Positions 10,965-56,342 of a stretch of DNA of 64,000 nucleotides are shown here, in pieces. Position 1 is the stretch's first letter. Each line of letters starts with the position of its first letter. This stretch comes from Patescibacteria group bacterium (GTDB taxonomy: Bacteria > Patescibacteriota > UBA1384 > XYA2-FULL-43-10 > 1-14-0-10-43-13). Location: NCBI GenBank assembly GCA_041649155.1, contig JBAZNP010000001.1:430564-494563 (forward strand). Reading direction: 5' to 3'. The position numbers and the translations under genes are program-made. The notes beneath the pieces were generated by a model. It saw nothing but the letters and a program-made list of their open reading frames with translations, had not been told where the DNA came from and did no database searches.

Positions 10965-11915
10965 ATGGATCTAACAAATAAATCAGAGTTGCTTGAGTAT
11001 TTGAAAAAGAATAATTTGTGGGCCAAGAAGGGTTTGGGCCAGAATTTTTTAGTTGATAAAAATGCTTTAGATCAAATTGTCGAAGCTGCGGAATTAACCT
11101 CACCCCAGCCCTCTCCTTCAGAAGGAGAGGGGGAATTGGTCGTGGAAGTTGGACCTGGCGTTGGAACTCTAACATTGGAATTAATAAAACAAGCCGGTGA
11201 AGTTGTTGCTGTTGAAATGGATGAGAAATTAGCAGAATTACTTAAGAGACAATTGTGTCATTCCCGATCTAGTCGGGAATCTACTATAGTGGATCCCCGC
11301 CTTCGCGGGGATGACAATGACAAGCTGAAAATTGTTTGCAGTGATATTCTGAGCGTCAACCTTAATGAGTTGGTGGGTGATCGCAAATACAAAGTGGTTG
11401 CCAACATTCCTTATTACATAACTTCAAAAATTATTGAATTGTTTTTGACGGCAGAAAATAAGCCGGAATCGATAGTGCTTCTGGTCCAGAAAGAGGTGGC
11501 GGAAAGAATTTGTGCCAAAGCCGGTGGCATGTCCGTTTTGTCTGTTTCAGTTCAGCTTTATGGTAAACCAGAAATTGTAGGCATTGTGCCGAAAGAATCT
11601 TTTTTTCCAAGTCCTAAAGTTGACTCGGCGATACTTAAAATATCGGACATTCAAGATCCATTCGACTCGCTATCGCTCGCTCAGGATGATACAAGAAACC
11701 TGTCAAAGTCGTTCTTCCGTTGTGTTCACATCGGCTTTGCATCACGAAGGAAAACTTTAGTGAATAACTTATCCGCAGGTTACCATATCGATAAGAAAAA
11801 AGCTTCTGATATAATAAATGCAATTGGATTAAGCGATAGTGTTAGAGCTCAAGAGCTGAGTATTGAAGATTGGGAAAAGTTGGCTCAAAAAATGAATCAC
11901 GAAGTAGGGAGTTGA
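10965..11915 (+). CDS. rsmA: 16S rRNA (adenine1518/1519-N6)-dimethyltransferase RsmA/KsgA, carrying two in-frame repeat-element insertions
   Basis: GQNFL, VEVGPGVGTLT, NIPYYITS and QKEV motifs. Relative to canonical KsgA there are extra segments: SPQPSPSEGEG at 11097-11135, and HSRSSRESTIVDPRLRGDD at 11266-11316 (51 nt). Confidence 0.8.
   Translation: MDLTNKSELLEYLKKNNLWAKKGLGQNFLVDKNALDQIVEAAELTSPQPSPSEGEGELVVEVGPGVGTLTLELIKQAGEVVAVEMDEKLAELLKRQLCHSRSSRESTIVDPRLRGDDNDKLKIVCSDILSVNLNELVGDRKYKVVANIPYYITSKIIELFLTAENKPESIVLLVQKEVAERICAKAGGMSVLSVSVQLYGKPEIVGIVPKESFFPSPKVDSAILKISDIQDPFDSLSLAQDDTRNLSKSFFRCVHIGFASRRKTLVNNLSAGYHIDKKKASDIINAIGLSDSVRAQELSIEDWEKLAQKMNHEVGS
11266..11316. repeat. Two tandem GC-rich hairpin modules (ATTCCCGA-TCTAG-TCGGGAAT and GGATCCCCGC-CTTC-GCGGGGATGACA) inserted in frame (51 nt) in rsmA
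   Basis: Palindromes seen directly. The same GGATCCCCGC...GCGGGGATGACA unit is intergenic at 44910-44935 and 47466-47492. Confidence 0.7.
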
Positions 11916-11919
11916 CCAT

Positions 11920-13404
11920 ATGAGTGAGGGGAAAGAAAAATCTCAATTTAAAGAGGGTTTTGAGGCGGGGTATGAAAAATCGCAAAAACTTTTTACGCTT
12001 TCTGAGTTTCGTAATGAACTCGGCATTCCTTTGGTTTTTGCGAAAAAGCTTGTTGTTTGGGGTGAAGTTGAAGCGGTAAAAGCTGCTGACGGTACGCTTC
12101 GTATTTCTGAAGAAGAACTGCTTGAAGCCAAAGAAATTCTGAAAAATCCTTGGAAGCGAGGATATTTATATTTAAAATCTCTTGGTCCTGGTATTATTAC
12201 TGGTGCTGCTGACGATGATCCTTCCGGTATTGGCACATATTCTTCTGTGGGAGCGCAATTTGGTTATTCTTTTGTCTGGATGGCGCCCTGGCTTTTGCCT
12301 TTGATGACTGCCGTTCAAGAATCGTGTGCCAGAATTGGCATTGTTACAAACAAGGGTCTGGCCGGAGTTCTGTTAAAACACTACAAAAAAAGTATTGTGG
12401 CCAGCATTGCTGTGCTTCTTGTGATTGCCAACATTGCCAATATTGGAGCTGACATTGCTGCAATGACTGCATCGGTTAACCTTATCGTCCCAATAAATTT
12501 TACGATAACGGCAATTGTGATCGCTATTTTGATTATTGCTGTTGAACTAACCATACCGTATAGAAACTACGCTAAATTTTTGAAGTGGCTGGCGTTGTCG
12601 TTATTTGCCTACATAATTACCGGTTTTATGATCCACCCTGACTGGCTTGCTATTTTTAAAGAAGCAATTGTGCCGGATCTGTCTTGGAATAAAGATTATA
12701 TCTTCGCGATGGTGGCTGTATTTGGCACCACTATCTCTCCATATCTTTTCTTTTGGCAAACATCAGAGGAGGTGGAAGAGCAGGCAGCAGAAAAATTTGA
12801 GCATAAAAAACTTGATCGTATGAATAATAGAATTGCTAAAATGAGAACCGATGTTAAAAGTGGTATGATTTTTGCCAATTTCACATTTTTATTTATAGTT
12901 ATTACCACTGCTTCTGTTTTATCTAAAAACGGTATTACATCAATTGAGTCAGCTGAGCAGGCTGCATTAGCTCTGAAGCCTTTTGCTGGTGATTATGCCT
13001 TTTTATTATTTGCTCTTGGTATTATTGGCACTGGTCTTTTGGCGGTACCGGTTTTGGCTGGATCGGGTGCCTATGCTCTTTGCGAGTTGATGAATTGGAA
13101 GGAAGGTTTGGAGGAAAAATTCTCAAGAGCAAAAGCGTTCTATTCAATTATTGCAGTATCAATTTTAATTGGCTTGGCTATAAATTTCATTGGTATAAGT
13201 CCGATGAAAGCCCTGTACTATTCGGCGTGGCTTAATGGTGTCATGGCTGTTCCTCTTCTCTTTGTGATTATGATTGTCGGTAATGATAAGAAAATAATGG
13301 GAGCGGAAACCCATCCTAGATGGGTTAAAGTGTTTGGCTGGGCCGCCTTTATTTTCTCGGCATTGGCTGTTTTGGCGACGATTGCCTTTATGTTTATTAA
13401 GTAG
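11920..13404 (+). CDS. Nramp/MntH-family divalent metal cation transporter
   Basis: GPGIITGAADDDPSGIGTYSSVGAQFGYSFVWMAP matches the Nramp DPGN/consensus transport motif region. About 11 predicted TM helices. N-terminal ~85-aa soluble extension. Confidence 0.65.
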   Translation: MSEGKEKSQFKEGFEAGYEKSQKLFTLSEFRNELGIPLVFAKKLVVWGEVEAVKAADGTLRISEEELLEAKEILKNPWKRGYLYLKSLGPGIITGAADDDPSGIGTYSSVGAQFGYSFVWMAPWLLPLMTAVQESCARIGIVTNKGLAGVLLKHYKKSIVASIAVLLVIANIANIGADIAAMTASVNLIVPINFTITAIVIAILIIAVELTIPYRNYAKFLKWLALSLFAYIITGFMIHPDWLAIFKEAIVPDLSWNKDYIFAMVAVFGTTISPYLFFWQTSEEVEEQAAEKFEHKKLDRMNNRIAKMRTDVKSGMIFANFTFLFIVITTASVLSKNGITSIESAEQAALALKPFAGDYAFLLFALGIIGTGLLAVPVLAGSGAYALCELMNWKEGLEEKFSRAKAFYSIIAVSILIGLAINFIGISPMKALYYSAWLNGVMAVPLLFVIMIVGNDKKIMGAETHPRWVKVFGWAAFIFSALAVLATIAFMFIK

Positions 13405-13418
13405 CAAGTTATTCTCCT

Positions 13419-14294
13419 TTGTGTTATAGTGAGCGCATGAAAAATATCTCAAAAACTGGGGATGCTTCTCCCAGAGAAGCGTCCCCACGATATGGAACGT
13501 TATATATTGTGGCTACTCCAATTGGCAATCTTGAAGACATTACACTTCGGGCGCTTCGTGTATTAAAGGAAGCCGATCTAATTGCCTGTGAAGACACTAG
13601 AGTAACGAGAAAATTACTCGAACATTTTGACATAAAAAATACAACAATATCGTATTTTCAACATTCCAAGCTATCTAAAATCGAATATATTATCAATCAA
13701 TTAACATTGGGTAAAAATATTGCTTTAGTCACAGATGCCGGAACGCCCGGCATTTCCGATCCGGGACAGGCCCTAATTCATAGAATTAGGGAAATTTCTA
13801 ATTCCAAATTTCTAATTTCTAATCAAAACCCAAATTCTAAAATCTCAAAAAGCTCAAATTGTCATCCTGAACTTGTTTCAGGATCTCATGGGATTTTGGA
13901 TCAAATCTGGAATGATAATAAAGAAATTAAAATAATTCCCATTCCGGGTTCTTCGGCACTCACGGCTGCGGCTTCTGTTTCAGGGATGATTGAAAAAGAA
14001 TTTTATTTTGCTGGTTTTCTGCCAAAGAAAAAAGGCCGACAAACTAAATTTAAGGAACTTTCCAAATTAAATGTTCCAATAGTCATCTATGAATCAGCTA
14101 ACCGCTTGGAAAAGGCTTTGGGGGAAATTAGAGAATATTTTGGGGACAACACCAAAGTCTTTATTGCTCGCGAAATCACCAAAATGTTTGAAGAATATTG
14201 GGGCGGAAGCGTTGATGAGATTATAAAAGATCTACCAAATCATCAATTGAAGGGGGAAGTGGCATTGATTATTAAAAATAATAAAATTAGATAG
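13419..14294 (+). CDS. rsmI: 16S rRNA 2'-O-ribose C1402 methyltransferase RsmI (tetrapyrrole-methylase fold) with a ~35-aa in-frame repeat insertion
   Basis: LYIVATPIGNLEDIT, CEDTR, ALVTDAGTPGISDPG and FLPKKKG motifs. The insertion at about 13790-13890 (ISNSKFLISNQNPNSKISKSSNCHPELVSGSHG) is built of TTCTAAT repeats plus the hairpin TCCTGAAC-TTGTT-TCAGGA. Confidence 0.75.
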   Translation: MCYSERMKNISKTGDASPREASPRYGTLYIVATPIGNLEDITLRALRVLKEADLIACEDTRVTRKLLEHFDIKNTTISYFQHSKLSKIEYIINQLTLGKNIALVTDAGTPGISDPGQALIHRIREISNSKFLISNQNPNSKISKSSNCHPELVSGSHGILDQIWNDNKEIKIIPIPGSSALTAAASVSGMIEKEFYFAGFLPKKKGRQTKFKELSKLNVPIVIYESANRLEKALGEIREYFGDNTKVFIAREITKMFEEYWGGSVDEIIKDLPNHQLKGEVALIIKNNKIR

Positions 14295-14337
14295 TTTTTA
14301 AGCTTTTTATTAACTTTTCTTAATATTTTCTTAAGAG

Positions 14338-15108
14338 TTGAAGGATATAATAACTCTTATGAATAAAGTATACACTCTAAAAGATAATGATCTTGTTTTG
14401 GGTTTTGACAAGAAATATGTGCTCAGGATAAAAGACCTTGATGAGGCTGACAAGCCGAGAGAAAAACTCATAAAACACGGATCTGATTTCCTTTCAGTTT
14501 CCGAGCTTTTGGCTGTCATATTTAATGTCGGGACAAAGAAAGAAAATGTTCTGGAGATGACTCAGCGTATTCTTAGGGAATATGGAGAAAAGGCGATTGT
14601 GAGTGAGAAAAGGCCGGCTAGTCTGGCTAAAGAACTGGAAATTCCTCTTAATAAAGCTTGCCAAGTTGTTGCTTGTTTCGAGTTGGGAAGGAGGTATTTC
14701 TCGGAAAAAGACGGAAAAGCAGTGTTTGTAAGAACAGCAAAACAGGCGTTTGATTATCTTTCTGATATGCAAAATTTGCCAAAAGAATGTTTCAGAGGGC
14801 TGTATTTAAATAGCCGATACCAAATCATTCATGATGAAGTTATCTCGATAGGGAGTTTAACTTCGAACATTGTTCATGCCAGAGAGGTTTTTCGTCCGGC
14901 TGTTGAGTGTTCGGCGGCGGCAATCATTGTCGCGCATAATCACCCGTCCGGAAGCTTGAAACCAACTCAGTCCGACATTGAAGTCACGGAAAAACTAGTT
15001 AAAGCGGGCGAAGTTTTGGGAATTGATATTTTAGACCATCTTGTTATTGCGAAAAATAAATTTATTAGTATTTTAGAGGATAAAGATTATGAAAATGAAA
15101 AATTATAG
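14338..15108 (+). CDS. radC: RadC-family JAB/MPN domain protein
   Basis: HNHPSG motif with downstream D, within AIIVAHNHPSGSLKPTQSDIEVTEKL. Confidence 0.7.
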   Translation: MKDIITLMNKVYTLKDNDLVLGFDKKYVLRIKDLDEADKPREKLIKHGSDFLSVSELLAVIFNVGTKKENVLEMTQRILREYGEKAIVSEKRPASLAKELEIPLNKACQVVACFELGRRYFSEKDGKAVFVRTAKQAFDYLSDMQNLPKECFRGLYLNSRYQIIHDEVISIGSLTSNIVHAREVFRPAVECSAAAIIVAHNHPSGSLKPTQSDIEVTEKLVKAGEVLGIDILDHLVIAKNKFISILEDKDYENEKL

Positions 15109-15376
15109 CATGGACCCGAATGAGTTCTTATTGCTTGCAGAGGAACAGTCAAGCGCATTTATCAACGATTTAGAGCTTCATGATTCTGGAAACGGGACAA
15201 GGGAGGGGCTAAAATTTCACATTAGTTCAGATGATTATTTTGGTACTTTGGCTTCAATCATGCGCTTGCTTATGGACGAAAAATTGGATCACAGCCCAAA
15301 ACATAAAGAGGCAATGCAAAAAATTGCGGATGATCTCATCTTTCTGCAAAAGAACTACAAAATCGCTAAGAAGTAG
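15089..15376 (+). CDS. Small hypothetical protein (95 aa)
   Basis: GAGGA SD 8 nt upstream. Overlaps the radC stop by 20 nt. No family recognised. Confidence 0.3.
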   Translation: MKMKNYSMDPNEFLLLAEEQSSAFINDLELHDSGNGTREGLKFHISSDDYFGTLASIMRLLMDEKLDHSPKHKEAMQKIADDLIFLQKNYKIAKK

Positions 15377-15625
15377 CAACAACAGATTACAGATAATACC
15401 AATAATAACAAATCACTAATAATACAGATAATACGAATGGGGAGGTAATGCGAACCAGGAAATCTGTATTATTCGTACAATTCGTCATCTGTTGTTTAAT
15501 TGTTTTGTTCTTGTGGGACGGGGGTGATTTTGGTAATATCAAATAAGAAAACAACAGATGGTGAATATTACAGATTACATAGAAAGATTGCCACGGTCGC
15601 CAAGATGACCTCGCAATGACAAAAT

Positions 15626-17107: not shown

Positions 17108-17115
17108 ATCAAAAT

Positions 17116-17228
17116 GTCATTCCCGCCCCGATGAGTTATCGGGGTAAACATCTGGCGGTAATCCAGAAACTATTGTATAGATCCCCGGGCACCACTTCAA
17201 AGCTACACCGCTGGTCCCGAGGATGACA
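17116..17228. repeat. TGTCAT...ATGACA-bounded GC-rich palindromic element (113 nt)
   Basis: GTCATTCCCGCCCCGATGAGTTATCGGGG...GGTCCCGAGGATGACA. The ends are inverted. Same family as 43609-43689, 50298-50391 and 56864-56946. Confidence 0.65.
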
Positions 17229-17243
17229 GAAAGTAGGAGGGTC

Positions 17244-18083: not shown

Positions 18084-18159
18084 AATAGTTATCAGTAAAT
18101 CAGTTGTTAGCTGTCAGTTTTAAAAACTTAGAACTGATTCACTTACAACTTACAACTTT

Positions 18160-21324: not shown

Positions 21325-21325
21325 G

Positions 21326-21440
21326 CGCAAGTTGTCAGTTAATCAGTTAATCAGTTAATCAGTTAATCAGTTAATCAGTTAATCAGTTAATCAGTAATAA
21401 CTATTAGAGGTTACTAGCGACAACTTACAACTTATTTACT
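21326..21440. repeat. Octamer microsatellite (TTAATCAG, about 8 copies) fused to a MITE-like core (CAGTAATAACTATTAGAGGTTACTAGCGACAAC) and ACAACTTA repeats
   Basis: Tandem copies seen at 21343-21405. The core matches 2170-2205 and 22330-22360. Confidence 0.65.
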
Positions 21441-30619: not shown

Positions 30620-30654
30620 GGTTAGTATTAAGTATTTAGTATCAAGGAAAAACC

Positions 30655-32477: not shown

Positions 32478-33656
32478 ATGAATATATATTTAGATAATGC
32501 GGCGACTACAAATATTGATCCGAAAGTAGTTGAGGCGATGAATAAATCGTACCAATTTTTTGGTAATCCATCTTCTTTGCATACTTTTGGACAGGAGGCC
32601 AGAAAATTGGTTGACCAGTCTCGAGACACAGTGGCGGAATTTTTGAATTGCAAACCAACTGAAGTGATTTTTACATCAGGTGGAAGCGAATCGGATAATT
32701 TGGCGATCAGAGGAATAGTTAACAGTATACAGATAACAGATAACAGTATAAAACCACATGTTATTACTAGTGCGATTGAGCATCATGCGGTTTTGCATAC
32801 GGTACAGGATCTGGAAAAGGCCGGTAAAATTGAGGCAACTTATGTCAAACCGAATGAAAAAGGCATTATTCAGGTATCTGACGTTGAAGCGGCAATAAAG
32901 CCAAACACTGTTTTGGTTTCAATAATGTATGTGAATAATGAAGTTGGAACGGTTCAGCCAATTCGGGAAATCGGTAAAATTATTGAAAAAGAAAATAAAG
33001 ACAGAAAAGTACGAATATATTTTCACACTGACGCGGTGCAGGCTGCGGAATTTTTCAATATGGATACAAAATATTTGCACGTTGATCTTCTGACTCTTAC
33101 AGCTCACAAATTTCATGGTCCGAAAGGGATTGGGGTTTTATTTATAAAAAAAGGAACGCCGATTGAGCCGCAAATTATTGGTGGCGACCATGAGTTTAGA
33201 TTTAGAGCAGGAACGGAAAATGTAAGTTCAATAGTCGGTCTTAAGACCGTTATTGAGCTGGTAGAAGGTAGAAGGAAGAAGGTGGAGGGAATTAAGAAAT
33301 TAAGGGACAAATTGGAGGATTGGATATTAAAAAATATACTGGAAACGTATTTAAATGGTGATAAGGAGAATCGAAGCCCGGTCATTTCCAATATTAGTTT
33401 TAAGAATGCTGAGGGCGAGGCGATAATTTTAAATTTGGATTTTATGGGAATTGCTGTGTCGTCCGGTTCAGCCTGTACAGCCAGAAGTCTTGATCCGAGT
33501 CATGTTTTGATGGCGATGAACACGCCGCGTGAGTTGTCACATGGTGCAATTAGATTTTCTCTAAGTCGGGAGACAACAGAAGAAGAAATTGACAGGGTTA
33601 TTGAAGTGCTTCCTGGTATTATAAAAAAATTAAGGGAGATGAGCCCTTTTGGATAA
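32478..33656 (+). CDS. Cysteine desulfurase (NifS/IscS class V aminotransferase)
   Basis: FTSGGSESDN, PLP-lysine region LLTLTAHKFHGPKGIG and active-site SSGSACT. An in-frame ACAGATAACAG-type insertion lies at about 32720-32752 (NSIQITDNSIKPH). Confidence 0.85.
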   Translation: MNIYLDNAATTNIDPKVVEAMNKSYQFFGNPSSLHTFGQEARKLVDQSRDTVAEFLNCKPTEVIFTSGGSESDNLAIRGIVNSIQITDNSIKPHVITSAIEHHAVLHTVQDLEKAGKIEATYVKPNEKGIIQVSDVEAAIKPNTVLVSIMYVNNEVGTVQPIREIGKIIEKENKDRKVRIYFHTDAVQAAEFFNMDTKYLHVDLLTLTAHKFHGPKGIGVLFIKKGTPIEPQIIGGDHEFRFRAGTENVSSIVGLKTVIELVEGRRKKVEGIKKLRDKLEDWILKNILETYLNGDKENRSPVISNISFKNAEGEAIILNLDFMGIAVSSGSACTARSLDPSHVLMAMNTPRELSHGAIRFSLSRETTEEEIDRVIEVLPGIIKKLREMSPFG

Positions 33657-33795
33657 ATATTGTTATATTGTTGCATTGTTATATTGTTAACCGCCCCTAA
33701 CCCCTCGCTCCCACCCCCTCTGACTCCCCCTCGGGCAGGGGGAGAACCGCTTGAAAAGGAGGGGAACAATAAAGCAATATAGCAATATAATTTTA
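33655..33795. repeat. MITE-like element with ATATTGTTAT / CAATATAGCAAT inverted ends and a CTCCCCCT-CGGGC-AGGGGGAG hairpin core
   Basis: The ends are reverse complements. Same family as 44581-44670, 48876-48915/49280-49320, 52496-52615 and 53440-53535. Confidence 0.65.
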
Positions 33796-35925: not shown

Positions 35926-37086
35926 GTGAAAAAAATAACAGATATAAAATCTAAAAAAATAAAAGTTGCTATCGGCATGTCAGGCGGCGTTGACTCTTCG
36001 GTTGCGGCTAAATTGCTTAAAGATCAAGGCTATGAAGTGGTCGGTTTTATGATGAAACTTTGGCCCGGGTCTGAAATCAAATGTGATAAAGACAATGCTT
36101 GTTGCGATATAGACGGCTTACAGGATGCAAAGAGAATTGCGGCAATTTTAGATATTCCTTTTTATGTTGTTGATGTTAGGGAAAAATTTAAGAAGGAAGT
36201 GGTTGATTATTTCATTGAAGAATATAAAAACTTACGAACTCCTAACCCGTGTGTTAAGTGTAATGAAAAAATTAAATTTGGCTGGCTTCTGGATTTTGCC
36301 AAAAAAACCGGTTGTGATTATTTGGCGACTGGACACTACGCTCGAATTGCGAGCGATTCAGGCAGTTGTCAGTTGTCAGTTGTCAGTTGTCAGAATGGCA
36401 ACACAACTTTTCATCTGTTTAAAGGCAAGGATGAGAACAAGGATCAGTCATATTTTTTATATAGGTTAAATCAAGACCAGCTCAAGCATATTATCTTTCC
36501 TGTTGGCGAATATACCAAAGAGGAAGTGAGAGCGTTAGCAAAAAAGTGGAATTTGCCGGTTCATGAGAAGAAAGAGAGTCAGGAGATTTGTTTTATTCAG
36601 GAAAAAGATTACAGGGATTTTTTAAAGAAAAATATTCCGGCCGATTTTTTTAAGCCAGGTGAAATCGTAGATCTATTCGGAAATATTGTTGGTAAGCACG
36701 AAGGTCTTATTAATTATACGATTGGACAGAGAAGGGGCATCGCGCAAGATACAAGCAACAAGATACAAGATACAAAACCAATGTATGTGATTGGGTATAA
36801 TGTTGAGGAAAATCGGCTAATTGTTGGCGAAGATAAAGATATTTATAAAGATCATATGAATGTTGAAGATGTTCATTTTATTCAGAATCAAGAATCAAGA
36901 ATCAAGAATCAAGAAGATGTGCAGGTAAAAATTCGTTACAGGCACCCTGCGGTTCCTTGTAAGATCATAATTCATAATTCTAAATTCATGATTCAATTCA
37001 ACGAGCCTCAACGGGCGATTACACCAGGCCAAAGTGCGGTTTTTTACGAAGGAGAAGAGGTTCTAGGTGGGGGAATAATACAATAA
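35926..37086 (+). CDS. mnmA: tRNA-specific 2-thiouridylase MnmA with four in-frame low-complexity insertions
   Basis: PP-loop SGGVDSS, NPCVKCN and GHYAR. Insertions: 36363-36388 (CAGTTGT x3.5, giving SCQLSVVSCQ), about 36750-36778 (CAAGATA repeats), 36883-36916 (AATCAAG x4.5) and 36963-36995 (TTCATAA repeats). GTG start. Confidence 0.85.
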   Translation: MKKITDIKSKKIKVAIGMSGGVDSSVAAKLLKDQGYEVVGFMMKLWPGSEIKCDKDNACCDIDGLQDAKRIAAILDIPFYVVDVREKFKKEVVDYFIEEYKNLRTPNPCVKCNEKIKFGWLLDFAKKTGCDYLATGHYARIASDSGSCQLSVVSCQNGNTTFHLFKGKDENKDQSYFLYRLNQDQLKHIIFPVGEYTKEEVRALAKKWNLPVHEKKESQEICFIQEKDYRDFLKKNIPADFFKPGEIVDLFGNIVGKHEGLINYTIGQRRGIAQDTSNKIQDTKPMYVIGYNVEENRLIVGEDKDIYKDHMNVEDVHFIQNQESRIKNQEDVQVKIRYRHPAVPCKIIIHNSKFMIQFNEPQRAITPGQSAVFYEGEEVLGGGIIQ

Positions 37087-37132: not shown

Positions 37133-39283
37133 ATGTTAATTGATACCAAAATTCAATATATAACCGGCGTTGGTCCGAAAATGGCAACAAAACTCAATCG
37201 TCTAGGAATTGAAACTATTTCCGACCTCATTTTTTATTATCCAAGAGCGTACAAAGATTTCACCCAAATCAGCAAGATTGCTGATTTGGGACACCAAAGA
37301 AATTGTGAAGTCACTATCAAAGGTAACATTATCGGTATTGCTAATAAGAAAACCAGCCGAAGACAGTTTACGATTACGGAAGCGATAGTGGAGGATGGCA
37401 CGGGAAGCATCAAAGTTATTTGGTTTAATCAGCCTTTTTTGGCTAAAATGCTTAAGCCTGGTCGGGAAGTAATATTAAACGGCAAAATTGAATACAATTT
37501 TTACTCAAAGGAAATCGTAATGCAGTCTCCGGAAAGGGCAATTTGCGAGAGTATTGTTCCGATATATGGCGAAACAGAAGGGATGTCGAGCAAGTACATT
37601 GGGAAACTAGTCATGAGTATTATGAAGCATGCTTCAAGTATCGAGGAATGGCTACCGGAAAAATTATTGAATGAATATAATCTAATCGGTATTCAAGAGG
37701 CTCTTTTAAATATTCATCAGTCAAAAAACTCGGAAATGTTAGTGCGGGCAAGACAAAGAATCGCTTTTGATGAGCTTTTTATGATTGCTTTACGGGCGAA
37801 TTTGAGCAAAGAGGAGATTAAAAAAGAAAATGCGCCAGAGATAAAAATTGACGATGAGAAAATTGCTGAATTTGTAAAAGGTCTGCCTTTTGAGCTGACA
37901 GATGATCAAAAGAAATCGGCTTGGCAGATTATCAAAGATATTGCTCAAAATAAACCAATGAATCGCTTGTTAAATGGCGACGTGGGAAGTGGCAAAACAG
38001 TTGTGGCTGCAATCGCGGCGTTTGCGGTAGTAAAAGCAGGTTTTCGGGTAGTTTTTATGGTGCCGACGAGCATTCTTGCTAACCAGCACTATCAAACATT
38101 TTGCAAATTGTTTGAGAATAGTGATATTTCGATCGGATTGTTCACGCGAGAACGGCAAGAATTTGAATCACGAATCTCGAATCATGAATCAAGGGATGTT
38201 AAAAAAACACATAATTCAAAATTCATAATTCATAATTCTGACATAATTATCGGTACTCAGGCCTTAATTCAAAAGGGCGTCGAGTTGGAGAACGTTGGAT
38301 TAGTTGTTGTCGACGAACAACATAGGTTCGGCGTAAAACAACGCTCTGCGTTGCTTGAACTGAGAACCTGCCTGCCGGTAGGCGGGCTGACAACTGCTCA
38401 AAAAATGCGTCCTCACTTTTTGAGCATGACTGCTACACCAATTCCCAGAACGTTACATTTAGCTCTGTTTGGTGACTTGGATATTTCTGTGATTTTGCAA
38501 AAACCAGCTGACAGAAAAGAGGTTAAAACGCGGGTTGTTGAAGAAATTAATCGTAACAAAGCCTACGAGTTTATTCGTAAGCAAATTCAAGCTGGAAGAC
38601 AGGCATTCATTATTTGTCCTCTGATCGAGGACAAATCAATTTCTAATGACAAATTTCTAATTTCTAATCAAGTCCCAAATTCCAATAACCAAGAAGCGGA
38701 ACACAAGACGGTTGTGGCTGAGCATGAGAAGCTGAAAAAAATATTTCCGGAATTTAATATTGGAATGTTGCACGGAAAGCTAAAGTCAAAGGAAAAAGAC
38801 GAAATCATGAAGGGTTTTTCTGATAACAAAATAAATATTTTGGTCAGCACATCGGTTGTTGAAGTTGGAATTGATGTGCCAAATGCAACAGTAATGGCTA
38901 TTGAGGATGCAGAGCGCTTTGGTTTGGCACAAATTCACCAGTTCAGAGGGCGGGTTGGAAGATCTGATCATCAGTCATTTTGCTTCCTGTTTTCCTCTAC
39001 AATGAGTCATAAAGCGAGAAAACGTTTAGAGAGCCTAGAGATGACTTCTGACGGATTTCGTTTGGCAGAAATTGATCTGGAGACTCGCGGTCCAGGAGCT
39101 GTGTTTGGCACTGAACAGTCTGGTCTTCTTGATCTGAAAATGGCTGATTTCAGCGACAGAAATTTAATTGAACAGGCAAGCTCGGCTGCAAGGGGGATTG
39201 TCGAAAATGACCCTGAGCTCAAAAAGCATCCTTTGCTAGGGGAGAAGATTTCCAATTTTATACAAAACAAACATTTGGAGTGA
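37133..39283 (+). CDS. recG: ATP-dependent DNA helicase RecG with three in-frame repeat insertions
   Basis: Wedge/helicase motifs GDVGSGKT, DEQHRFGV, SMTATPIPRT and QFRGRVGR. Insertions at 38164-38240 (AATCA/TTCATAA heptamers), 38360-38396 (CTGAGAACCTGCCTGCCGGTAGGCGGGCTGACAACTG, the intergenic MITE core) and 38641-38690 (TTCTAAT repeats). Confidence 0.85.
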   Translation: MLIDTKIQYITGVGPKMATKLNRLGIETISDLIFYYPRAYKDFTQISKIADLGHQRNCEVTIKGNIIGIANKKTSRRQFTITEAIVEDGTGSIKVIWFNQPFLAKMLKPGREVILNGKIEYNFYSKEIVMQSPERAICESIVPIYGETEGMSSKYIGKLVMSIMKHASSIEEWLPEKLLNEYNLIGIQEALLNIHQSKNSEMLVRARQRIAFDELFMIALRANLSKEEIKKENAPEIKIDDEKIAEFVKGLPFELTDDQKKSAWQIIKDIAQNKPMNRLLNGDVGSGKTVVAAIAAFAVVKAGFRVVFMVPTSILANQHYQTFCKLFENSDISIGLFTRERQEFESRISNHESRDVKKTHNSKFIIHNSDIIIGTQALIQKGVELENVGLVVVDEQHRFGVKQRSALLELRTCLPVGGLTTAQKMRPHFLSMTATPIPRTLHLALFGDLDISVILQKPADRKEVKTRVVEEINRNKAYEFIRKQIQAGRQAFIICPLIEDKSISNDKFLISNQVPNSNNQEAEHKTVVAEHEKLKKIFPEFNIGMLHGKLKSKEKDEIMKGFSDNKINILVSTSVVEVGIDVPNATVMAIEDAERFGLAQIHQFRGRVGRSDHQSFCFLFSSTMSHKARKRLESLEMTSDGFRLAEIDLETRGPGAVFGTEQSGLLDLKMADFSDRNLIEQASSAARGIVENDPELKKHPLLGEKISNFIQNKHLE

Positions 39284-39362: not shown

Positions 39363-39908
39363 TTGTCTTTATATGATATCGATGTGGAAAAAGATGAATT
39401 TGATCTCGGTAATTTAGTCGAAAAATATCGCCTTTTGATTGGTGGTGGATTGCTTTCTTTGATCTTGATTGGAGCAGGAATTTTGTTGTGGCAGGAGAAT
39501 TTTGCGAAGCAAAATTCAGAATCAAGAATTACAAATCTTGAATCAAGAATTAATCAACTTGAAGATAAATATAAAGAGTATGAAGTATCTGGTATTAAGT
39601 ATCAGGCAGAGGAACAGGCTTCACAACAAAGTATTCCTGAACAGGGGCAGGTAGCAGGAGCAAGTAGTCAGAATGCAGATAACAGTAAACAGATAACAGC
39701 ATTAGCACCGGTCGGCGGGAAAATTAATATTAATACTGCGAGTGTGACTGAGCTCGATTCGTTATCGGGAATTGGTCCGACTTATGCTCAGCGGATTATC
39801 GATTACAGAAATTCAAATGGTGGTTTTAAGTCAATTGACGAGATCAAGAACGTAAAAGGCATCGGCGACAAGACTTTTGACAAGTTTAAAGATAGGATTA
39901 CGATTTAA
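39363..39908 (+). CDS. comEA: ComEA-family competence protein (membrane anchor plus tandem HhH DNA-binding domain)
   Basis: [22 protein letters not shown]-terminal [55 protein letters not shown]. The linker carries AATCAAG and CAGATAACAG repeat insertions. Confidence 0.7.
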
Positions 39909-40336: not shown

Positions 40337-40492
40337 ACAAAGCTGAAGACCGATACCGCAAACTTGTTGAAAAACAAGGACGCAAAGCTAGATCGACTTA
40401 GGATCGATCCAAGGGCCTGAAAGTGGCAGCCAGTTGCCGAACCTTCGGCATGATCTCAGCTTTGTAATACACTCCTACAGGGGGATGTTACA
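40337..40492 (+). promoter_or_regulatory. Structured ~155-nt 5' leader, a candidate riboswitch that resembles the c-di-GMP-I (GEMM) aptamer
   Basis: ACCGCAAAC, then hairpin CUUG-UUGAAAAA-CAAG, then GACGCAAAGC, then hairpin GAUCGA-CUUAGGA-UCGAUC (40356-40405). This parallels the GGCAAAC, P1 hairpin, GGACGCAAAGC, P2 hairpin layout. Downstream lie the competing hairpins GGCA-GCCAGU-UGCC and GCCGAA-CCU-UUCGGC, and an SD (AGGGGGA) that can pair with an upstream CUCCU. Confidence 0.35.
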
Positions 40493-42863: not shown

Positions 42864-42868
42864 AATGT

Positions 42869-43796: not shown

Positions 43797-44816
43797 ATGA
43801 ATATTCAAAAACGAAAAATTATTGCAATTGTGGGGCCGACGGCTAGTGGAAAAACGGCTGTTGGAGTGAAGCTTGCCAGAGAATTTAATGGTGAGATTGT
43901 TTCAGCTGATTCTCGCCAGGTTTTTCGTGGACTCGATATTGGAACAGGCAAAGATCTAGCTGAATATGGCGAGGTTAAATATCACATGATTGATATTTGT
44001 GAACCTGAAGAAGATTTTAATTTGTTTAAATATTTGGAGCTGGCTAGGGCGGTAATCGAAGATATTTTTTCGCGAGGGAAATTGCCGATTATTGTCGGGG
44101 GAACAGGACTATACATCCAAGCGCTCACCCAAGGGTTCGCGCTTGAAAAAATTCAAAATTCAAAATTCAAAATTCAAAATTATAGTGAGCGTTTCACGCA
44201 CGGACTATTAGATAGAGGAGCATTGAATAGTAAGACGGTTTCAGAGCTGCAAAATATTTTACAAGAGCTAGACATTAAAGCGTATGAAAATTTGGCGGAT
44301 AAGAAAAATCCTCATAGGCTTATTCGGGCAATTGAGAGAGCGCAGAGCAGAGAAGTTATTACGAAAGAAAAGCCCGATTTTGAAGTGCTGCAAATTGGTT
44401 TGGACTGGCCCAGAGAGGAACTAAATAAACGGATTGATAAAAGAGTTGATGATAGATTTGAACAGGGAATGCTTGGCGAAGCTGAACTATTATTAAAATC
44501 GGGGGTTGATCCGGAATGGTTATTAAAATTGGGGCTAGAATATAGAATAATGACCAGCTTTCTTCTTGAAATCGCTAAATTGTTAAATTGCTCTATTGCT
44601 GACCTCACCCCAACCCTCTCCTTGTTAAGGAGAGGGAGCGTCGATATAACAATGGAACAATATAACAATGATTTTGAGTTGATGAAAGATCAACTCAAGT
44701 TGCGTTCTCATCAATATGCTAAAAGGCAAATGACTTGGTTTAAAAGGTTTCCTGAGATTACTTGGGAAAAAGATTATAAAAAAATAAGTGAATTAGTTGA
44801 AAATTATTTGAACTAA
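43797..44816 (+). CDS. miaA: tRNA dimethylallyltransferase MiaA with two in-frame repeat insertions
   Basis: P-loop GPTASGKT, SADSRQV and ..AKRQMTWF. Insertions at 44147-44182 (AAATTC x5, giving KIQNSKFKIQN) and 44581-44670 (a complete ATTGCTCTATTGCT...CCCTCTCCTT-GTTAA-GGAGAGGG...ATATAACAAT MITE-like unit, near-identical to the intergenic copy at 53440-53535). Confidence 0.85.
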   Translation: MNIQKRKIIAIVGPTASGKTAVGVKLAREFNGEIVSADSRQVFRGLDIGTGKDLAEYGEVKYHMIDICEPEEDFNLFKYLELARAVIEDIFSRGKLPIIVGGTGLYIQALTQGFALEKIQNSKFKIQNYSERFTHGLLDRGALNSKTVSELQNILQELDIKAYENLADKKNPHRLIRAIERAQSREVITKEKPDFEVLQIGLDWPREELNKRIDKRVDDRFEQGMLGEAELLLKSGVDPEWLLKLGLEYRIMTSFLLEIAKLLNCSIADLTPTLSLLRRGSVDITMEQYNNDFELMKDQLKLRSHQYAKRQMTWFKRFPEITWEKDYKKISELVENYLN

Positions 44817-47495: not shown

Positions 47496-49282
<1,787 letters not shown>

Positions 49283-49319
49283 AGCAATATATCAATTTAA
49301 CAATATAACAATTTGCGCT

Positions 49320-50258: not shown

Positions 50259-50297
50259 AATATTCTTAATTTATAATTTTCAATTTTTATCCCTAAC

Positions 50298-50391
50298 TGT
50301 CATTGCGAGGAGCGTAAGCGACGAAGCAATCTGTTGTAAGATTGCCACGCCTCTTCGAGGCTTCCTCCAGAAGCGGACAAGTGCAATGACG
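50298..50391. repeat. TGTCATTGCG...GCAATGACGA-bounded long imperfect palindrome (94 nt) in the atpA-atpG spacer
   Basis: Inverted termini GTCATTGCGAGG / CAAGTGCAATGAC seen directly. Confidence 0.6.
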
Positions 50392-50398
50392 AATGATA

Positions 50399-52030: not shown

Positions 52031-52099
52031 GGTACTCCTAGTTGTCAGTAAATCAGTTGTCAGTTCTCAGTTATTTACAACCTACTACTGTTTTACTTA

Positions 52100-52495
52100 C
52101 TACTTGTTATTATTTAAGGCGTTTTTAAGCCGGTTTACTTTGTTTTCTAAACTCAAATCAATTTCTATATCATCTGCTTTGACTATTATTCCAGCAGTTT
52201 GACTGGGTGTAATTATATTTTTTAAAATTAACTCTTTTTTAAATTGTTTAGTCAACTTATCTTCGATTTCTTTGGTTTGATCTTTGTCTAATGCTTTTGA
52301 CGAATAAACTTTAACTAAAATTTTATTGTTTTGTTTCGCATACTCAGAATCAAGGCACTCAAGAATTTTTGATAAATCCTTATGCTGATTGTTTCGCTGC
52401 AATTTGTACCAGAAATTCTTGGCGATATCTTTGATATTGCCTTGTTCCATTCCTGCAATCAGGACTTTTGCATATTGTTCTGGGGTAATTTTCAT
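52100..52495 (-). CDS. atpH: F1 ATP synthase subunit delta (short form)
   Basis: Position between atpF and atpA. Length 131 aa. Weak OSCP-like pattern. Confidence 0.55.
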   Translation of the reverse strand: MKITPEQYAKVLIAGMEQGNIKDIAKNFWYKLQRNNQHKDLSKILECLDSEYAKQNNKILVKVYSSKALDKDQTKEIEDKLTKQFKKELILKNIITPSQTAGIIVKADDIEIDLSLENKVNRLKNALNNNK

Positions 52496-52615
52496 AATAT
52501 TAATTGCTATATTGCTATATTGCTATATTGCTATATTGCTATATTGTCATATTGCTACTGCCCAGGCTCCTGTAGCCTTAACAATTTAACAATAAAACAA
52601 TGTAACAATAATAAT
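52496..52615. repeat. (CTATATTG)x5 tandem array plus inverted AACAATTTAACAATAAAACAATGTAACAAT. A MITE-like unit of the ATATTG/CAATAT family.
   Basis: Seen directly between atpH and atpF. Confidence 0.6.
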
Positions 52616-52618
52616 GAT

Positions 52619-53101
52619 TTATAACTCTTTAATTGCTTGTTCTGTTAATTTCGCTTTGCTATTGGCATCTATTTCTTCGCCAACGATCTTATCCAATGCC
52701 ATTACTACAACGTTCGATAACTCTTTTTTAGCTTCTTTTAAGGCTCTTTCCTTCGCCATGCCTGCTTCTTCGTCGGCATTTTTTAATATTTTATCTGCCT
52801 GATCGTTTGCTTTTTTAACTATGGATGCGGCTTTTTCACTCGCTTCCTTTTTGGCTTCTGAAATAATTTTATCAGCCTCTTTAAAGGCATCATCCTTTAT
52901 CTTGTCAGCATTTTCTTTTGCCTGACCCAAACATTTCTCTGCATTTTCCGAATCCTTTAATCCTTTACAGATTTTTTCCTCCCTGTCGCTCAACATTTTT
53001 GTGATTGGTTTATACAAGAATTTGGAGAGTACCAAAAAAAGTACAACAAAATTTACTATTTGCGCGATCAATAATTTTAAATCTATTCCTAAAGCTTCCA
53101 T
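52619..53101 (-). CDS. atpF: Fo ATP synthase subunit b
   Basis: N-terminal TM (LIAQIVNFVVLFLVL) followed by a long charged helix. Operon position. Confidence 0.65.
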   Translation of the reverse strand: MEALGIDLKLLIAQIVNFVVLFLVLSKFLYKPITKMLSDREEKICKGLKDSENAEKCLGQAKENADKIKDDAFKEADKIISEAKKEASEKAASIVKKANDQADKILKNADEEAGMAKERALKEAKKELSNVVVMALDKIVGEEIDANSKAKLTEQAIKEL

Positions 53102-53188
53102 GATAATTTTCTCCGAAAATTAGTAGTCAGTACTCAGTAGTCAGTTTTCAGCTAAGTGCTGATTTACTGACAACTGATTTACTAACAA

Positions 53189-53437
<249 letters not shown>

Positions 53438-53439
53438 TT

Positions 53440-53535
53440 ATATTGTTTTATTGTTACATTGCTCTATTGCTAACCTCGCCTACCCTCTCCTTAGAAAGGA
53501 GAGGAGCAATATAACAATTTAGCAATACAACAATT
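53440..53535. repeat. Complete MITE-like unit: ATATTGTTTTATTGTTACATTGCTCTATTGCT...CCCTCTCCTT-AGAAA-GGAGAGG...AATATAACAATTTAGCAATACAACAAT
   Basis: Near-identical to the copy embedded in miaA (44581-44670). The same hairpin core occurs in rsmA at 11097-11135. Confidence 0.65.
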
Positions 53536-53536
53536 A

Positions 53537-54286
53537 TTAGTGTGCTTCTGCGGCATGGTCTGTTATAGCCATTTTTATAAATACTAAAGCAAGCATTGTG
53601 AATACTAAAGCCTGAATGAAACCGACGAATATTTCAAGCAGATAAAATGGCAATGGCGCAACATAAGGAACAATCATAGCAATAACCGTAAGTAAAACTT
53701 CTCCGGCAAAAATATTTCCGAACAGACGAAAGGAAAAGGAAATCATTTTGGAAAATTCTGATACTATCTCCAGAGTGCCGACGAAGAAATCAATTGGTCC
53801 CTTGAAATTAATAAATCTACTAAAGTATTTGGTAAATCCAATAGCGAGTACGCCGAAAACCTGAACCATTACGACGGTCAAGATCGCGAGAGCTAAAGTT
53901 GTATTGAGATCGGCGTTACCGCCACGGAAAATTGGAATGAAAACTTCTTTGCCGTGATGGATTTCATGAAGGCCGATTGTACCAACACCAGGAAGAAGAC
54001 CAAGCCAGTTGTTTGTAATGATAAAAAGAAATATTGTCGCTAAAAGAGGGAAATATTTCTTCGTTTGTTCTTTGTCGTCTATTACGCTGTTAACCATATT
54101 AAACAGAAGCTCAACTATTGTCTCAAAGAAGTTTTGGATTCCACGGGGAATATCTTTTAAATTTCTGGCGGCTAAAACACCAAAAACAATAAGCAGCAAA
54201 GTGGCAATCCAGCTTGTTAGCATTGAGTTTGTGATCGGCATTGATCCAATGTGCCCGATTTTTTCAGCAGCTAAGGAAATTTCCAT
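53537..54286 (-). CDS. atpB: Fo ATP synthase subunit a
   Basis: Five TM helices. Conserved Arg in FSFRLFGNIFAGE. Confidence 0.8.
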   Translation of the reverse strand: MEISLAAEKIGHIGSMPITNSMLTSWIATLLLIVFGVLAARNLKDIPRGIQNFFETIVELLFNMVNSVIDDKEQTKKYFPLLATIFLFIITNNWLGLLPGVGTIGLHEIHHGKEVFIPIFRGGNADLNTTLALAILTVVMVQVFGVLAIGFTKYFSRFINFKGPIDFFVGTLEIVSEFSKMISFSFRLFGNIFAGEVLLTVIAMIVPYVAPLPFYLLEIFVGFIQALVFTMLALVFIKMAITDHAAEAH

Positions 54287-54380
54287 GAAAATTTTTAATT
54301 TTTAATTTAAAATTTCTAATCAATTTCTAATTTTAAAATTTTTAAACATTAATCATTAAAAATTGAATAAAAATTAAGAA

Positions 54381-54626
54381 TTAAAAATTTCTGATAGCGT
54401 CTCTAACAATTTTTCTTAAAGTAAAGTAAACAATTACTGTAGCAAGGAATAAACCGGCTAAGAATAAGTAAGGTGCTGTTCCATATTTGTTGTCCAGATA
54501 ACGACCTAAAAGGCCGAATATTACTAATGGAAGGGCAGTCGCAAAGCCAATCTGTCCGATTAATGAAAAAGAGAAAATCATACTCTTCTTCAAAGAATTA
54601 TCTTTTTTTGTGTCTTCTTTTTTCAA
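54381..54626 (-). CDS. AtpZ/AtpI-like small membrane protein, first gene of the atp operon
   Basis: 81 aa, two TM helices. Position upstream of atpB. Confidence 0.45.
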   Translation of the reverse strand: MKKEDTKKDNSLKKSMIFSFSLIGQIGFATALPLVIFGLLGRYLDNKYGTAPYLFLAGLFLATVIVYFTLRKIVRDAIRNF

Positions 54627-54788
54627 AATCTATAAGCCCAAGCTAACACTGCCACGAAGCGCTGTCAATATAGGGGACTATTGACGGAAATTAAGACCTG
54701 TGATAAGGGTTTTGTAAATTATTTTAATATTTCGTTAATTTATGTTTTTTTAATGTTTTGTTAAGTCTCTCTGCATAAAATAAATATT

Positions 54789-56342
54789 GTGAATAAAGTT
54801 GCAAAAATATTTTCGGCTGCGACGGTTGGTCTGGAATCGTATTTAGTTGAGGTGGAAGTCGACATAGGAGCAGGGCTTCCTTCTTTTAGTATTGTTGGTC
54901 TTCCTGATAAGGCGATTGATGAAAGTAAGGAGAGAATTCGAGCGGCGATCAAAAATTCTAATGTAAATTTTCCCCAGCATCGTCTTACAATAAATTTGGC
55001 TCCAGCTGACGTTAAGAAAGAGGGGCCTAGTTTTGATTTGCCGATGGCGGTTGGAATATTGCTGGCTGGCGAGCAGCTTCAACATATTCCTGAATATAAA
55101 AAATCATTGTTTATTGGTGAACTTTCGCTTAATGGTGAGCTTCGTCACGTTAACGGGATTTTACCGATAGTGCTTTTTGCGGCTCAAAATGGATTTGAAC
55201 GGGTGTACTTACCTGAAGTGAATGCTCACGAGGCATCTTTGATAAAAGGAATTGATATTTTTGCTGTCAAAGATTTGAAACAGTTGGTGAAACATTTGAG
55301 AAGCGAAGAAATCATCAAGCCGTACCCAAAAGTTACAAGTTACAAGAAACAAGATACAAACAATACTGAATTCGACTTTGCGTATGTGGCGGGACAAGAA
55401 CAGGTTAAGAGGGCGATGGAGATTGCGGCTGCGGGAAATCATAACATTTTACTTTCCGGACCTCCCGGGTCGGGTAAAACTTTGTTGGCCAGAAGCATTA
55501 CTACGATTTTGCCGGAAATGGACGAGGATGAGATGCTTGATGTGACCAAGATTTATTCTGTGGCAGGAATGCTGATAAGTGGCGAGCGTAGTCGAACCAT
55601 GAATAGTTTGATATCGGAGCGTCCCTTTCGTTCTCCTCATCATACGACATCAAGCGTAGCTCTTATCGGAGGAGGGCAGTGGCCTCGCCCAGGAGAGATA
55701 AGCCTTTCCCATCGAGGCATACTCTTTTTGGATGAATTTCCTGAGTTTCCAAGGAATGTATTGGAAGCATTGCGCCAGCCGCTCGAAGATGGTGTTGTCA
55801 CTGTCTCGCGTGCGCAGGGAAGTTTGACATTTCCGGCTGAATTTTTGTTGGTCGCGGCACAAAATCCCTGTCCTTGCGGTTATCTTTCTGATCCGGACCG
55901 GCGTTGTATTTGTACTCCAATTCAGATTATGAGATATCAGAAAAAGATCTCCGGTCCGCTTTTGGATAGGATTGATATTCACATTGAAGTGCCAAGGCTG
56001 AAATATGAGAAGCTGGCAAGTAAAAAAGTAGCAGAGTCATCGAGCGAAGTTAAAAAAAGAGTGCAGGAAGCGAGGAATATTCAAAATAAAAGGTTTGAAG
56101 GTTTGAAAATCAAGGCAAATTCGGGGATAAATTCACGTAGAATTAAGGAATTTTGCCAGCTTGATCTTGAAGCTGAAAGGGTTTTGGCTAGTGCAGTTGA
56201 GCAAATGAAGCTTTCTGCTCGTGTATATCACAGGCTTTTAAAAATTGCCCGAACAATTGCGGATTTAGAGAAATCCGAGATCATCCAGGCAAACCATATC
56301 GCTGAAGCTCTTCAATATAGGCCGAAAGAGAAAGCTTATTGA
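54789..56342 (+). CDS. comM: Mg-chelatase-like AAA+ ATPase ComM/YifB family
   Basis: Lon-like N-domain, Walker A LLSGPPGSGKT, Walker B ILFLDEFPEF and C-terminal helical domain. In-frame insertion at about 55330-55365 (KVTSYKKQDTNNT from ACAAGTT repeats). Confidence 0.85.
   Translation: MNKVAKIFSAATVGLESYLVEVEVDIGAGLPSFSIVGLPDKAIDESKERIRAAIKNSNVNFPQHRLTINLAPADVKKEGPSFDLPMAVGILLAGEQLQHIPEYKKSLFIGELSLNGELRHVNGILPIVLFAAQNGFERVYLPEVNAHEASLIKGIDIFAVKDLKQLVKHLRSEEIIKPYPKVTSYKKQDTNNTEFDFAYVAGQEQVKRAMEIAAAGNHNILLSGPPGSGKTLLARSITTILPEMDEDEMLDVTKIYSVAGMLISGERSRTMNSLISERPFRSPHHTTSSVALIGGGQWPRPGEISLSHRGILFLDEFPEFPRNVLEALRQPLEDGVVTVSRAQGSLTFPAEFLLVAAQNPCPCGYLSDPDRRCICTPIQIMRYQKKISGPLLDRIDIHIEVPRLKYEKLASKKVAESSSEVKKRVQEARNIQNKRFEGLKIKANSGINSRRIKEFCQLDLEAERVLASAVEQMKLSARVYHRLLKIARTIADLEKSEIIQANHIAEALQYRPKEKAY

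Follow-up and report, generated by a model that had tools for sequence, protein, structure and literature searches.

Short palindromic and heptamer repeats inside the housekeeping genes of a Patescibacteria genome

Why should the conserved enzymes of a bacterium with a tiny genome carry, within their reading frames, the same short repeats that lie between its genes? This question is raised by a 64,000-nucleotide stretch of the metagenome-assembled genome of a groundwater-type Patescibacteria bacterium (contig JBAZNP010000001.1, positions 430,564 to 494,563), which we refer to as the window. The window has a G+C content of 39%, is ~86-87% coding by public gene calls and holds dnaX, dnaB, uvrD, ksgA, rsmI, radC, metG, a gene for a 2745-aa surface protein, nifS/nifU, folD, mnmA, recG, comEA, miaA, glmS, the atp operon and comM. 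An earlier note on this DNA proposed that several unrelated repeat families had been inserted in frame into a dozen conserved genes. We consider it likely that several short, non-autonomous repeat families have been dispersed into spacers and genes, and that copies standing in frame within tolerant loops persist and are translated. Copies were sought in the window and in 85 loci (L-numbers below). Calls of insertion rest on DNA alignment of ksgA and rsmI with L002, a Logan assembly that was the closest relative found and is syntenic with the window at ~80-85% nucleotide identity, and on alignment to solved homologues. A second, independent assembly of the same genome was also compared (ENA ERZ27247363, 603 kb).

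The window is rich in short tandem arrays. Tandem Repeats Finder detected 25 non-redundant period-7 arrays, whereas 30 dinucleotide-preserving shuffles of the window gave 1.8 on average and 5 at most; period-8 arrays numbered 10, against 2.1 in the shuffles. The units are 7-8 nt long with a constant 4-nt core (GAAT, CAGT, CAAG or ATTG). Coding DNA (55.8 kb) holds about 18 heptamer-type arrays and spacer DNA (8.2 kb) about 12, an approximately five-fold greater density in spacers, with coding DNA still far above chance. The spacers are mostly composed of composite palindromes, in which an arm of three to seven units is followed by a centre, often a GC-rich hairpin, and by the inverse arm; terminal inverted repeats like those of miniature inverted-repeat transposable elements are present. 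Spacer arms directly follow stop codons and directly precede start codons, often without a Shine-Dalgarno sequence. Arrays of AGTATNA or ACTTACA units at 7667-7696, 18141-18158 and 30624-30646, for instance, are separated from the start codons of uvrD, tatD and a glycosyltransferase gene by just a few bases that hold no Shine-Dalgarno sequence, an arrangement that resembles the TAACTGA arrays of Beggiatoaceae.

The GC-rich hairpin families were defined by a hairpin scan together with the repeat finder and include, apart from the TGTCA-tagged family described below, CCCTCTCC..GGAGAGGG and CCTGCCTGCCGG.. types. Intrinsic terminators were set aside by eye as an identity for these hairpins, because the copies inspected have no trailing T-run. 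The families and the composite palindromes to which the text refers are as follows.

11109, 44614 and 53484: GC hairpin family CCCTCTCCTT-N3-AAGGAGAGGG
2197, 22105, 38370 and 62262: GC hairpin family CCTGCCTGCCGG(Y)AGG
33657-33790, intergenic: composite palindrome with ATATTGTT arms and a CCCCCTCGGGCAGGGGG hairpin, its core nested in ksgA of L003
53437-53536, intergenic: composite palindrome, reference copy of the miaA element

About 24 repeat copies lie inside intact open reading frames (ORFs), across about ten housekeeping enzymes. Repeats with the motifs first described were found at or near each coordinate given in the earlier note, and the same elements do occur in spacers and in conserved genes; the CAGTTGT run of mnmA was correctly recognized as the arm, or terminal inverted repeat, of the intergenic element at 2153-2244.

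The strongest evidence for insertion comes from ksgA and rsmI, where filled sites in the window can be set against empty sites in L002.

11097-11135, + strand: ksgA site 1, CCCTCTCCTT-N3-AAGGAGAGGG hairpin element, +27 nt relative to L002
11256-11316, + strand: ksgA site 2, TGTCA doublet of 61 nt (CHSRSSRESTIVDPRLRGDD), net +60 nt relative to L002
11657-11690, + strand: ksgA site 3, +24 nt (PFDSLSLAQDD), empty in L002
13448-13492, + strand: rsmI, N-terminal +45-nt hairpin (GGGGATGCTTCTCCCAGAGAAGCGTCCCC), absent from L002 and L003
13784-13905, + strand: rsmI, +120 nt, AATTTCT-type element plus TGTCA hairpin (CHPELVSGSH)

The net length is divisible by three at every one of these filled/empty pairs, three in ksgA and two in rsmI, as the proposal of in-frame insertion required. 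Both ksgA sites listed originally are insertions, but the 51 nt, or exactly 17 codons, ascribed to site 2 should read 61 nt, of which 60 nt, or 20 codons, are net gain; the extra segment of rsmI around 13790-13890 was borne out, and the sites at 11657-11690 and 13448-13492 had been overlooked. At the protein level, KsgA has extra residues at all three sites relative to solved structures, and RsmI has approximately 42 additional residues at 13784-13905 relative to solved RsmI. Nine neighbouring genes in the same L002 alignment (those for a G5 protein, nramp, radC, metG, eamA, tatD, abc, ftsX and tpr) have no coding indel of 10 nt or more, the gaps near the ends of tatD and ftsX falling at or just beyond the stop codons.

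The same KsgA loops vary widely among the 120 nearest homologues, measuring 6-33 residues at site 1, 8-76 at site 2 and 12-63 at site 3, and they hold many different repeat-type peptides. Site 1 has 7 residues in 106 of these proteins and 13-33 in 13, nearly all of the long versions containing a P-x-P...G-E-G peptide that belongs to the same type of hairpin; site 3 has 12-16 residues in 72 of the 120 and exceeds the mode by at least 5 residues in 48. An AlphaFold model of the window's KsgA (predicted local distance difference test [pLDDT] score 85, predicted template modelling [TM] score 0.83) retains the KsgA fold, with TM scores of 0.85-0.89 normalised to solved chains, and places all three inserts as low-confidence coil outside the core, residues 102-117 having pLDDT below 50.

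Repeats within the other host genes present a more mixed picture.

3569-3607, + strand: dnaX, linker downstream of domain III, heptamer arm of GAATNNN units (QNQEARIMNHEF), missed by the earlier note
3722-3751, + strand: dnaX, NNNATTC arm (HDSKFKIQNS), some 115 nt from 3569-3607, of which it is the inverted partner
8737-8789, + strand: uvrD, +42 nt specific to the window (AKRYFSSGARSSQP), the ends being inverted (ATATT..TCGA / TCGAACAATAT)
9037-9104, + strand: uvrD, AATTTCT-type element (ISKSEFLNPNQIKNPKISKK) of the family of the rsmI and recG copies, common to L002 and L003
9289-9350, + strand: uvrD, REPIN-like TGTCA doublet of 62 nt (VIPDLIGNTDLDPRVEPEND), +16 aa relative to PcrA
32720-32751, + strand: nifS, ACAGATA heptamer array (IQITDNS), +4 aa relative to solved IscS, common to L006
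36363-36393, + strand: mnmA, CAGTTGT x4.4 array (QLSVVSC peptide), +13 aa relative to solved MnmA
36745-36775, + strand: mnmA, CAAGATA array in a native loop, +1 aa
36884-36995, + strand: mnmA, AGAATCA array and inverted TCATAAT array, +2 and 0 aa
38159-38240, + strand: recG, complete GAATNNN / NNNATTC palindrome in a loop variable among relatives
38360-38396, + strand: recG, CCTGCCTGCCGGTAGGCGGG hairpin, of a family also found at 2197, 22105 and 62262
38638-38685, + strand: recG, element of the AATTTCT type that shares 90% identity with the rsmI copy
39513-39699, + strand: comEA, GAATCAA, AGTATNA and CAGATAA arrays in the linker from membrane to helix-hairpin-helix (HhH) domain
44148-44181, + strand: miaA, AAAATTC x4.9 array, +8-10 aa relative to solved MiaA
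44566-44672, + strand: miaA, complete composite palindrome consisting of an ATTG octamer arm, a CCCTCTCC hairpin and a CAAT octamer arm, with about 32 aa more than solved MiaA
49590-49640, - strand: atpG, expanded loop, +18 aa relative to solved gamma subunit, with a local GGACAGTCCCC direct repeat
55330-55360, + strand: comM, ACAAG-type heptamer array adding 3 aa to an inter-domain linker, with 96% identity to intergenic 2351-2375

Both miaA sites are extra relative to solved MiaA, as had been claimed, and the larger belongs to the same family as the intergenic copy at 53437-53536; the two are 76% identical, not near-identical. An insertion proposed at 9046-9110 in uvrD did not hold, since the window is 8 aa shorter than PcrA at this point and the segment is also present in L002 and L003. 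The true extra loops of UvrD lie at 8737-8789 (residues 348-367, +13 aa relative to PcrA) and 9289-9350, and neither had been listed. A GC-rich ACGCCCT x3 array (21 nt, ALRPTPY) was observed in uvrD of L002 at window position 7966; it is absent from the window and adjoins the window's own GGGAGCA array. In mnmA, the first of the four proposed insertions stands and the other three do not. The inverted arms at 36884-36995 bracket a conserved 50-nt coding segment. The recG segments at 38360-38396 and 38638-38685 were confirmed as extra sequence that derives from repeats, as proposed, and they occupy loops that vary among relatives. The atpG segment is extra but was found nowhere else in the search set, which leaves its listing as a dispersed repeat unsupported. 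The arrays of comM and nifS, which add 3 and 4 aa, were not confirmed as insertions, and the arrays in dnaX and comEA lie in unconserved linkers, in the case of dnaX beyond the last conserved domain. Overall, about half of the sites listed in the earlier note are not net insertions and consist of repeat sequence that occupies native loops or linkers. In its favour, at least eight sites are lineage-specific additions that L002 or solved homologues lack.

The best-defined family carries a TGTCA tag followed by a 7-8-bp stem, a 3-5-nt loop, the complementary stem and TC(C/T)A. Seven such hairpins were found in the window and 23 across related loci from six genomes. Inverted doublets of 58-114 nt occur four times in the window, twice in genes (uvrD and ksgA) and twice in spacers.

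17115-17228, intergenic between metG and eamA: TGTCA...TGACA doublet of 114 nt
56864-56946, intergenic: TGTCA doublet of 83 nt

Five of the seven single hairpins of the scan and two of the four doublets are inside ORFs, so the family is not predominantly extragenic. The 61-nt doublet of ksgA folds as one long hairpin (-32.8 kcal/mol, z -5.7). Among the 23 copies, both-sided changes were seen at six of seven stem pairs and the tag was invariant; the 100% stem pairing of this set arises by construction, because its members were picked with a hairpin finder. A less biased test is provided by the tag itself: a hairpin follows directly after 32 of 315 TGTCA occurrences, compared with 2.1% for permuted tags or arbitrary positions. 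In its sequence, the TGTCA family has the architecture of the repetitive extragenic palindromic (REP) sequences and of REPINs, with a different tag. One locus, L023, has about nine TGTCA hairpins (370-800) directly downstream of a 101-aa ORF in which GIY-YIG-like motifs were recognized by eye, and a CCTGCC-type hairpin is nested within the loop of one of them.

Comparison with relatives points to dispersal. The ksgA doublet is identical at 59 of 61 positions to a copy in recG of L007, whose RecG protein is 59% identical, and the rsmI element shares 98% identity over 45 nt with a copy in uvrD of L003; the elements are thus far better conserved than their host genes. TGTCA doublets are ~97% identical across genomes with core proteins that are ~60% identical. 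The spacer hairpin at 33697-33745 recurs nested inside a ksgA hairpin of L003, L023 providing a second case of nested insertion in a hairpin loop. The same TGTCA doublet occupies two RecG sites of L006 and L007, and where the window has its mnmA and rsmI heptamers, relatives hold others. Within the window's clade both heptamer arrays and TGTCA hairpins are dense; in other Patescibacteria loci their distribution is patchy. As judged from these copies, the repeat elements do multiply and are dispersed. Relatives also have inserts elsewhere, for instance three in NifS of L006, the longest of 56 aa. In all, the NifS orthologue of L006 (~1500-2950) has four indels that are absent in the window (6, 15, 56 and 12 aa), the 56-aa insert being a string of several hairpin-type peptides.

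The tandem arrays also differ between the two assemblies of the genome. Across more than 60 kb, the ENA assembly departs from the window solely in three tandem arrays, which are therefore the fastest-changing sites. In the ENA assembly, the intergenic octamer array at 52503-52557 is short of one ATTGCTAT unit and that at 21335-21395 is longer by about four TCAGTTAA units. In mnmA (L086 9238), the loss of one CAGTTGT unit causes a frameshift that splits the gene into two ORFs; MnmA products of 178 aa are on record for two ENA contigs, as against the intact 386 aa in NCBI and JGI. The claim that the repeats always keep the frame holds, therefore, for the window, where all intragenic copies are open, but not for the ENA assembly.

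In each of the 24 elements within genes the frame in use is open, whereas on average only about three of six frames are, and the product of the chances is 10^-8.6, a statistic that is partly circular because the genes were defined as ORFs. Four of the elements have a single open frame, which is the one used, and no housekeeping gene is interrupted in the window. The surviving copies would thus be translated as extra loop peptides. We envisage that REP/REPIN-like TGTCA hairpins and composite palindromes spread as non-autonomous DNA, perhaps moved in trans by a transposase acting on single-strand DNA, as would be suggested by their likeness to REPINs and by nesting within hairpin loops. Genic copies would persist only if they fell in a tolerant surface loop or linker, in a stop-free orientation and frame, and with a net length change that is a multiple of three. 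The same loops may be struck repeatedly, with new elements nesting within old ones, and older copies may decay or be trimmed until repeat sequence merely occupies a native loop. Heptamer arrays would then gain or lose units of 7 nt by slippage and could so put the host gene out of frame; slippage was seen directly at the three arrays that differ between assemblies. A stronger version, in which the TGTCA doublets are an active family transposed as single-strand DNA by an as yet unrecognized enzyme, moving horizontally among co-occurring Patescibacteria with a preference for hairpin loops and for a few positions in nucleic-acid enzymes, and in which the attached heptamer arrays act as slippage switches by which mnmA and other housekeeping genes are turned off and on within a population, seems to us rather doubtful.

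Several observations weigh against dispersal by insertion, in addition to the circularity of the frame statistic and the selected pairing of the 23 hairpins. About half of the intragenic arrays bring no net gain in length, and for these in situ evolution or gene conversion fits as well as insertion; recombination or template switching between copies is possible, especially for length-neutral arrays that replace loops. No target-site duplication was discernible at the ksgA and rsmI filled/empty pairs. No transposase gene, including any like the REP-associated tyrosine transposases (RAYTs), was found in the 64-kb window or in the flanks examined. No second copy of the atpG insert, of ksgA site 3 or of the N-terminal rsmI insert was detected in the window and the 85 loci.

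Pfam searches of ten window ORFs, mostly unannotated, gave no transposase, and no insertion sequence element was found in the window. Rfam identified only tRNAs and a cyclic di-GMP-I riboswitch, with no family for the repeats. Two insert peptides joined end to end found no match in a word-indexed search of proteins. When the 30-aa region of the ksgA insert was compared exhaustively with 1.84 billion representatives, only 10 matches (P0125-P0134) emerged. Those inspected were translations of CRISPR arrays with similar CCCCGC..GCGGGG stems; hence, no census of host proteins was obtained. The resemblance is visible in the insert peptide DPRLRGDD, and public protein sets include long spurious ORFs read through such CRISPR arrays. 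An exact 29-mer was found at only three loci in JGI metagenomes, one within a 281-aa ORF, and a literature search on the insert peptides and on Patescibacteria with MITE or palindromic repeats revealed no earlier description.

Other explanations must be considered. The repeats might be native variable loops and low-complexity linkers that have drifted towards heptamer periodicity through slippage and AT-biased mutation, with no mobile DNA involved. Such drift would account for three of the four mnmA arrays, uvrD 9046-9110, comM and nifS, which add 0-4 residues relative to solved homologues, for the arrays in the unconserved linkers of dnaX and comEA, for slippage by whole units and for the presence of other heptamers at the same mnmA and rsmI positions in relatives. 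It leaves unexplained, however, the 45-107-nt segments common to unrelated genes and spacers, the clean empty sites in L002 and the near-identity of doublets between genomes with divergent proteins, and as a general account we consider it unlikely. Selection on nucleic acid signals offers a different view, in which the arrays and hairpins are not a tolerated by-product and serve in binding of S1-, Csp- or CsrA-like proteins or in mRNA processing or pausing. The position of spacer arms against stop and start codons, as at uvrD, tatD and the glycosyltransferase gene, recalls the TAACTGA arrays (PMC4679880) and would fit such a role; so would the folding of the composite elements, which is far above that of shuffles (z -4.4 to -8.1), and the conserved segment bracketed by two inverted arms in mnmA. 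Yet presence is not kept between close relatives, GAAT-type arms fold weakly (z -0.4 to -2.4), no Rfam family matches and genic density is some five-fold below that of spacers, so that signalling appears improbable as the main explanation.

It is also conceivable that the inserts are intervening sequences that are removed or bypassed by the ribosome, that the host genes are pseudogenes or that the inserts are artefacts of assembly. The rRNA genes of the candidate phyla radiation (CPR) are known to carry intervening sequences, and mnmA is frameshifted in one assembly. Every insert is nevertheless in frame and free of stops, and the net lengths at the filled/empty pairs are multiples of three; all inserts agree in the two independent assemblies, and related inserts occur in metagenome-assembled genomes from other samples. 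We regard this group of explanations as very improbable. Dispersal of short repeats, with retention of in-frame copies, thus remains the reading we prefer.

How do these repeats compare with known systems? In-frame insertion of palindromes is classically represented by the Rickettsia palindromic elements (RPEs) of approximately 100-150 bp (Ogata et al. 2000, 2002; in PMC10969869), and the comparison with them made in the earlier note is apt. As with the RPEs, several palindromic families occur in a reduced genome, in frame in unrelated housekeeping genes and also in non-coding DNA, in a manner compatible with the protein fold; in-frame palindromic repeats absent from orthologues were found in ksgA, rsmI, uvrD and miaA. 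The elements described here differ, on the published description, in their size (~25-120 nt), presumably in sequence, in being built in many cases from 7-8-nt tandem arms and in their Patescibacteria host; moreover, the same protein loops are struck across lineages, and copies are near-identical in distantly related genomes.

REP sequences are 20-40-nt GC-rich imperfect palindromes with an end tag, often arranged as inverted doublets (Bertels & Rainey 2011, PMC3116915); most lie just downstream of genes and carry a GTAG or CGTC tag (PMC3116915, PMC3733652). Di Nocera et al. 2013 (PMC3733652) observed REPs within ORFs of several species, often as dimers that code for 20-30 aa, with a concentration in genes for replication and repair (UvrD, RecB and others). 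The TGTCA family shares the many tagged GC-rich copies and the inverted doublets that fold as one hairpin, whereas its tag is different, no RAYT was found in the window or flanks examined, and about half of the window copies are intragenic, compared with a small minority in Proteobacteria. For the tandem arrays, MacGregor 2015 (PMC4679880) described TAACTGA heptamer arrays in Beggiatoaceae, Cyanobacteria and Bacteroidetes, beside start codons, with a few inside ORFs in one orientation only, including a surface loop (LSVINYQ). The arrays of the window are similar in having two to six heptamer units with ACTGA/TCAGT, enrichment in spacers, positions that abut start codons and translatability in one orientation. 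They differ in their CAACTGA/TTACTGA-like units (CAGTTGT, TCAGTTAA) and in the unrelated GAAT, CAAG and ATTG cores, and here several heptamer and octamer families form inverted arms around GC hairpins and are frequent in conserved enzymes. The STRR heptamers of cyanobacteria are comparable repeats. Small dispersed repeats of cyanobacteria, on which Elhai et al. worked in 2008, are said to be very short hairpins that insert in genes and nest in other repeats; going by this account, those of the window differ in sequence and in phylum. The novelty implied by the earlier note was therefore too high, as intragenic translated REPs (PMC3733652) and heptamer arrays in ORFs (PMC4679880) had already been described. 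What sets the case apart is the TGTCA tag, the composite of arm, hairpin and arm, the high share of genes affected and the host phylum; the case is a further example of the Rickettsia/REP type of phenomenon and not a new kind of biology.

Other features of the window were observed in passing. Between atpD and atpG (48877-49312, - strand) lies a gene for a 126-aa member of PF05635, the family of 23S rRNA intervening-sequence proteins; the gene is bordered by inverted ATTG / CAAT octamer arrays, giving it a cassette-like appearance within the atp operon. The riboswitch that Rfam detected (40347-40441; 44.4 bits against a gathering score of 35) precedes a 215-aa ORF with a weak double-zinc-ribbon match. 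The G+C content peaks (47%) at 58010-60333, a segment that includes a 681-aa ORF with only a weak match to MutS domain V; a cluster of three tRNA genes precedes this ORF, with a GAAT-type palindrome (57669-57750) between tRNAs.

If our reading is correct, selfish short repeats would be a main source of protein length variation in an ultra-small genome, as exemplified by the single KsgA loop that ranges from 8 to 76 residues among its closest homologues and is made of repeat translations. Such repeats can give rise to split genes, spurious ORFs and inflated numbers of "novel" insertions in CPR proteins, and repeat-derived segments should be masked in phylogenomic alignments. The unit-step polymorphism at three arrays, one of which frameshifts mnmA, offers a testable case of repeat-driven inactivation of a tRNA-modification gene. 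More broadly, these repeats would bear on how reduced genomes tolerate mobile DNA.

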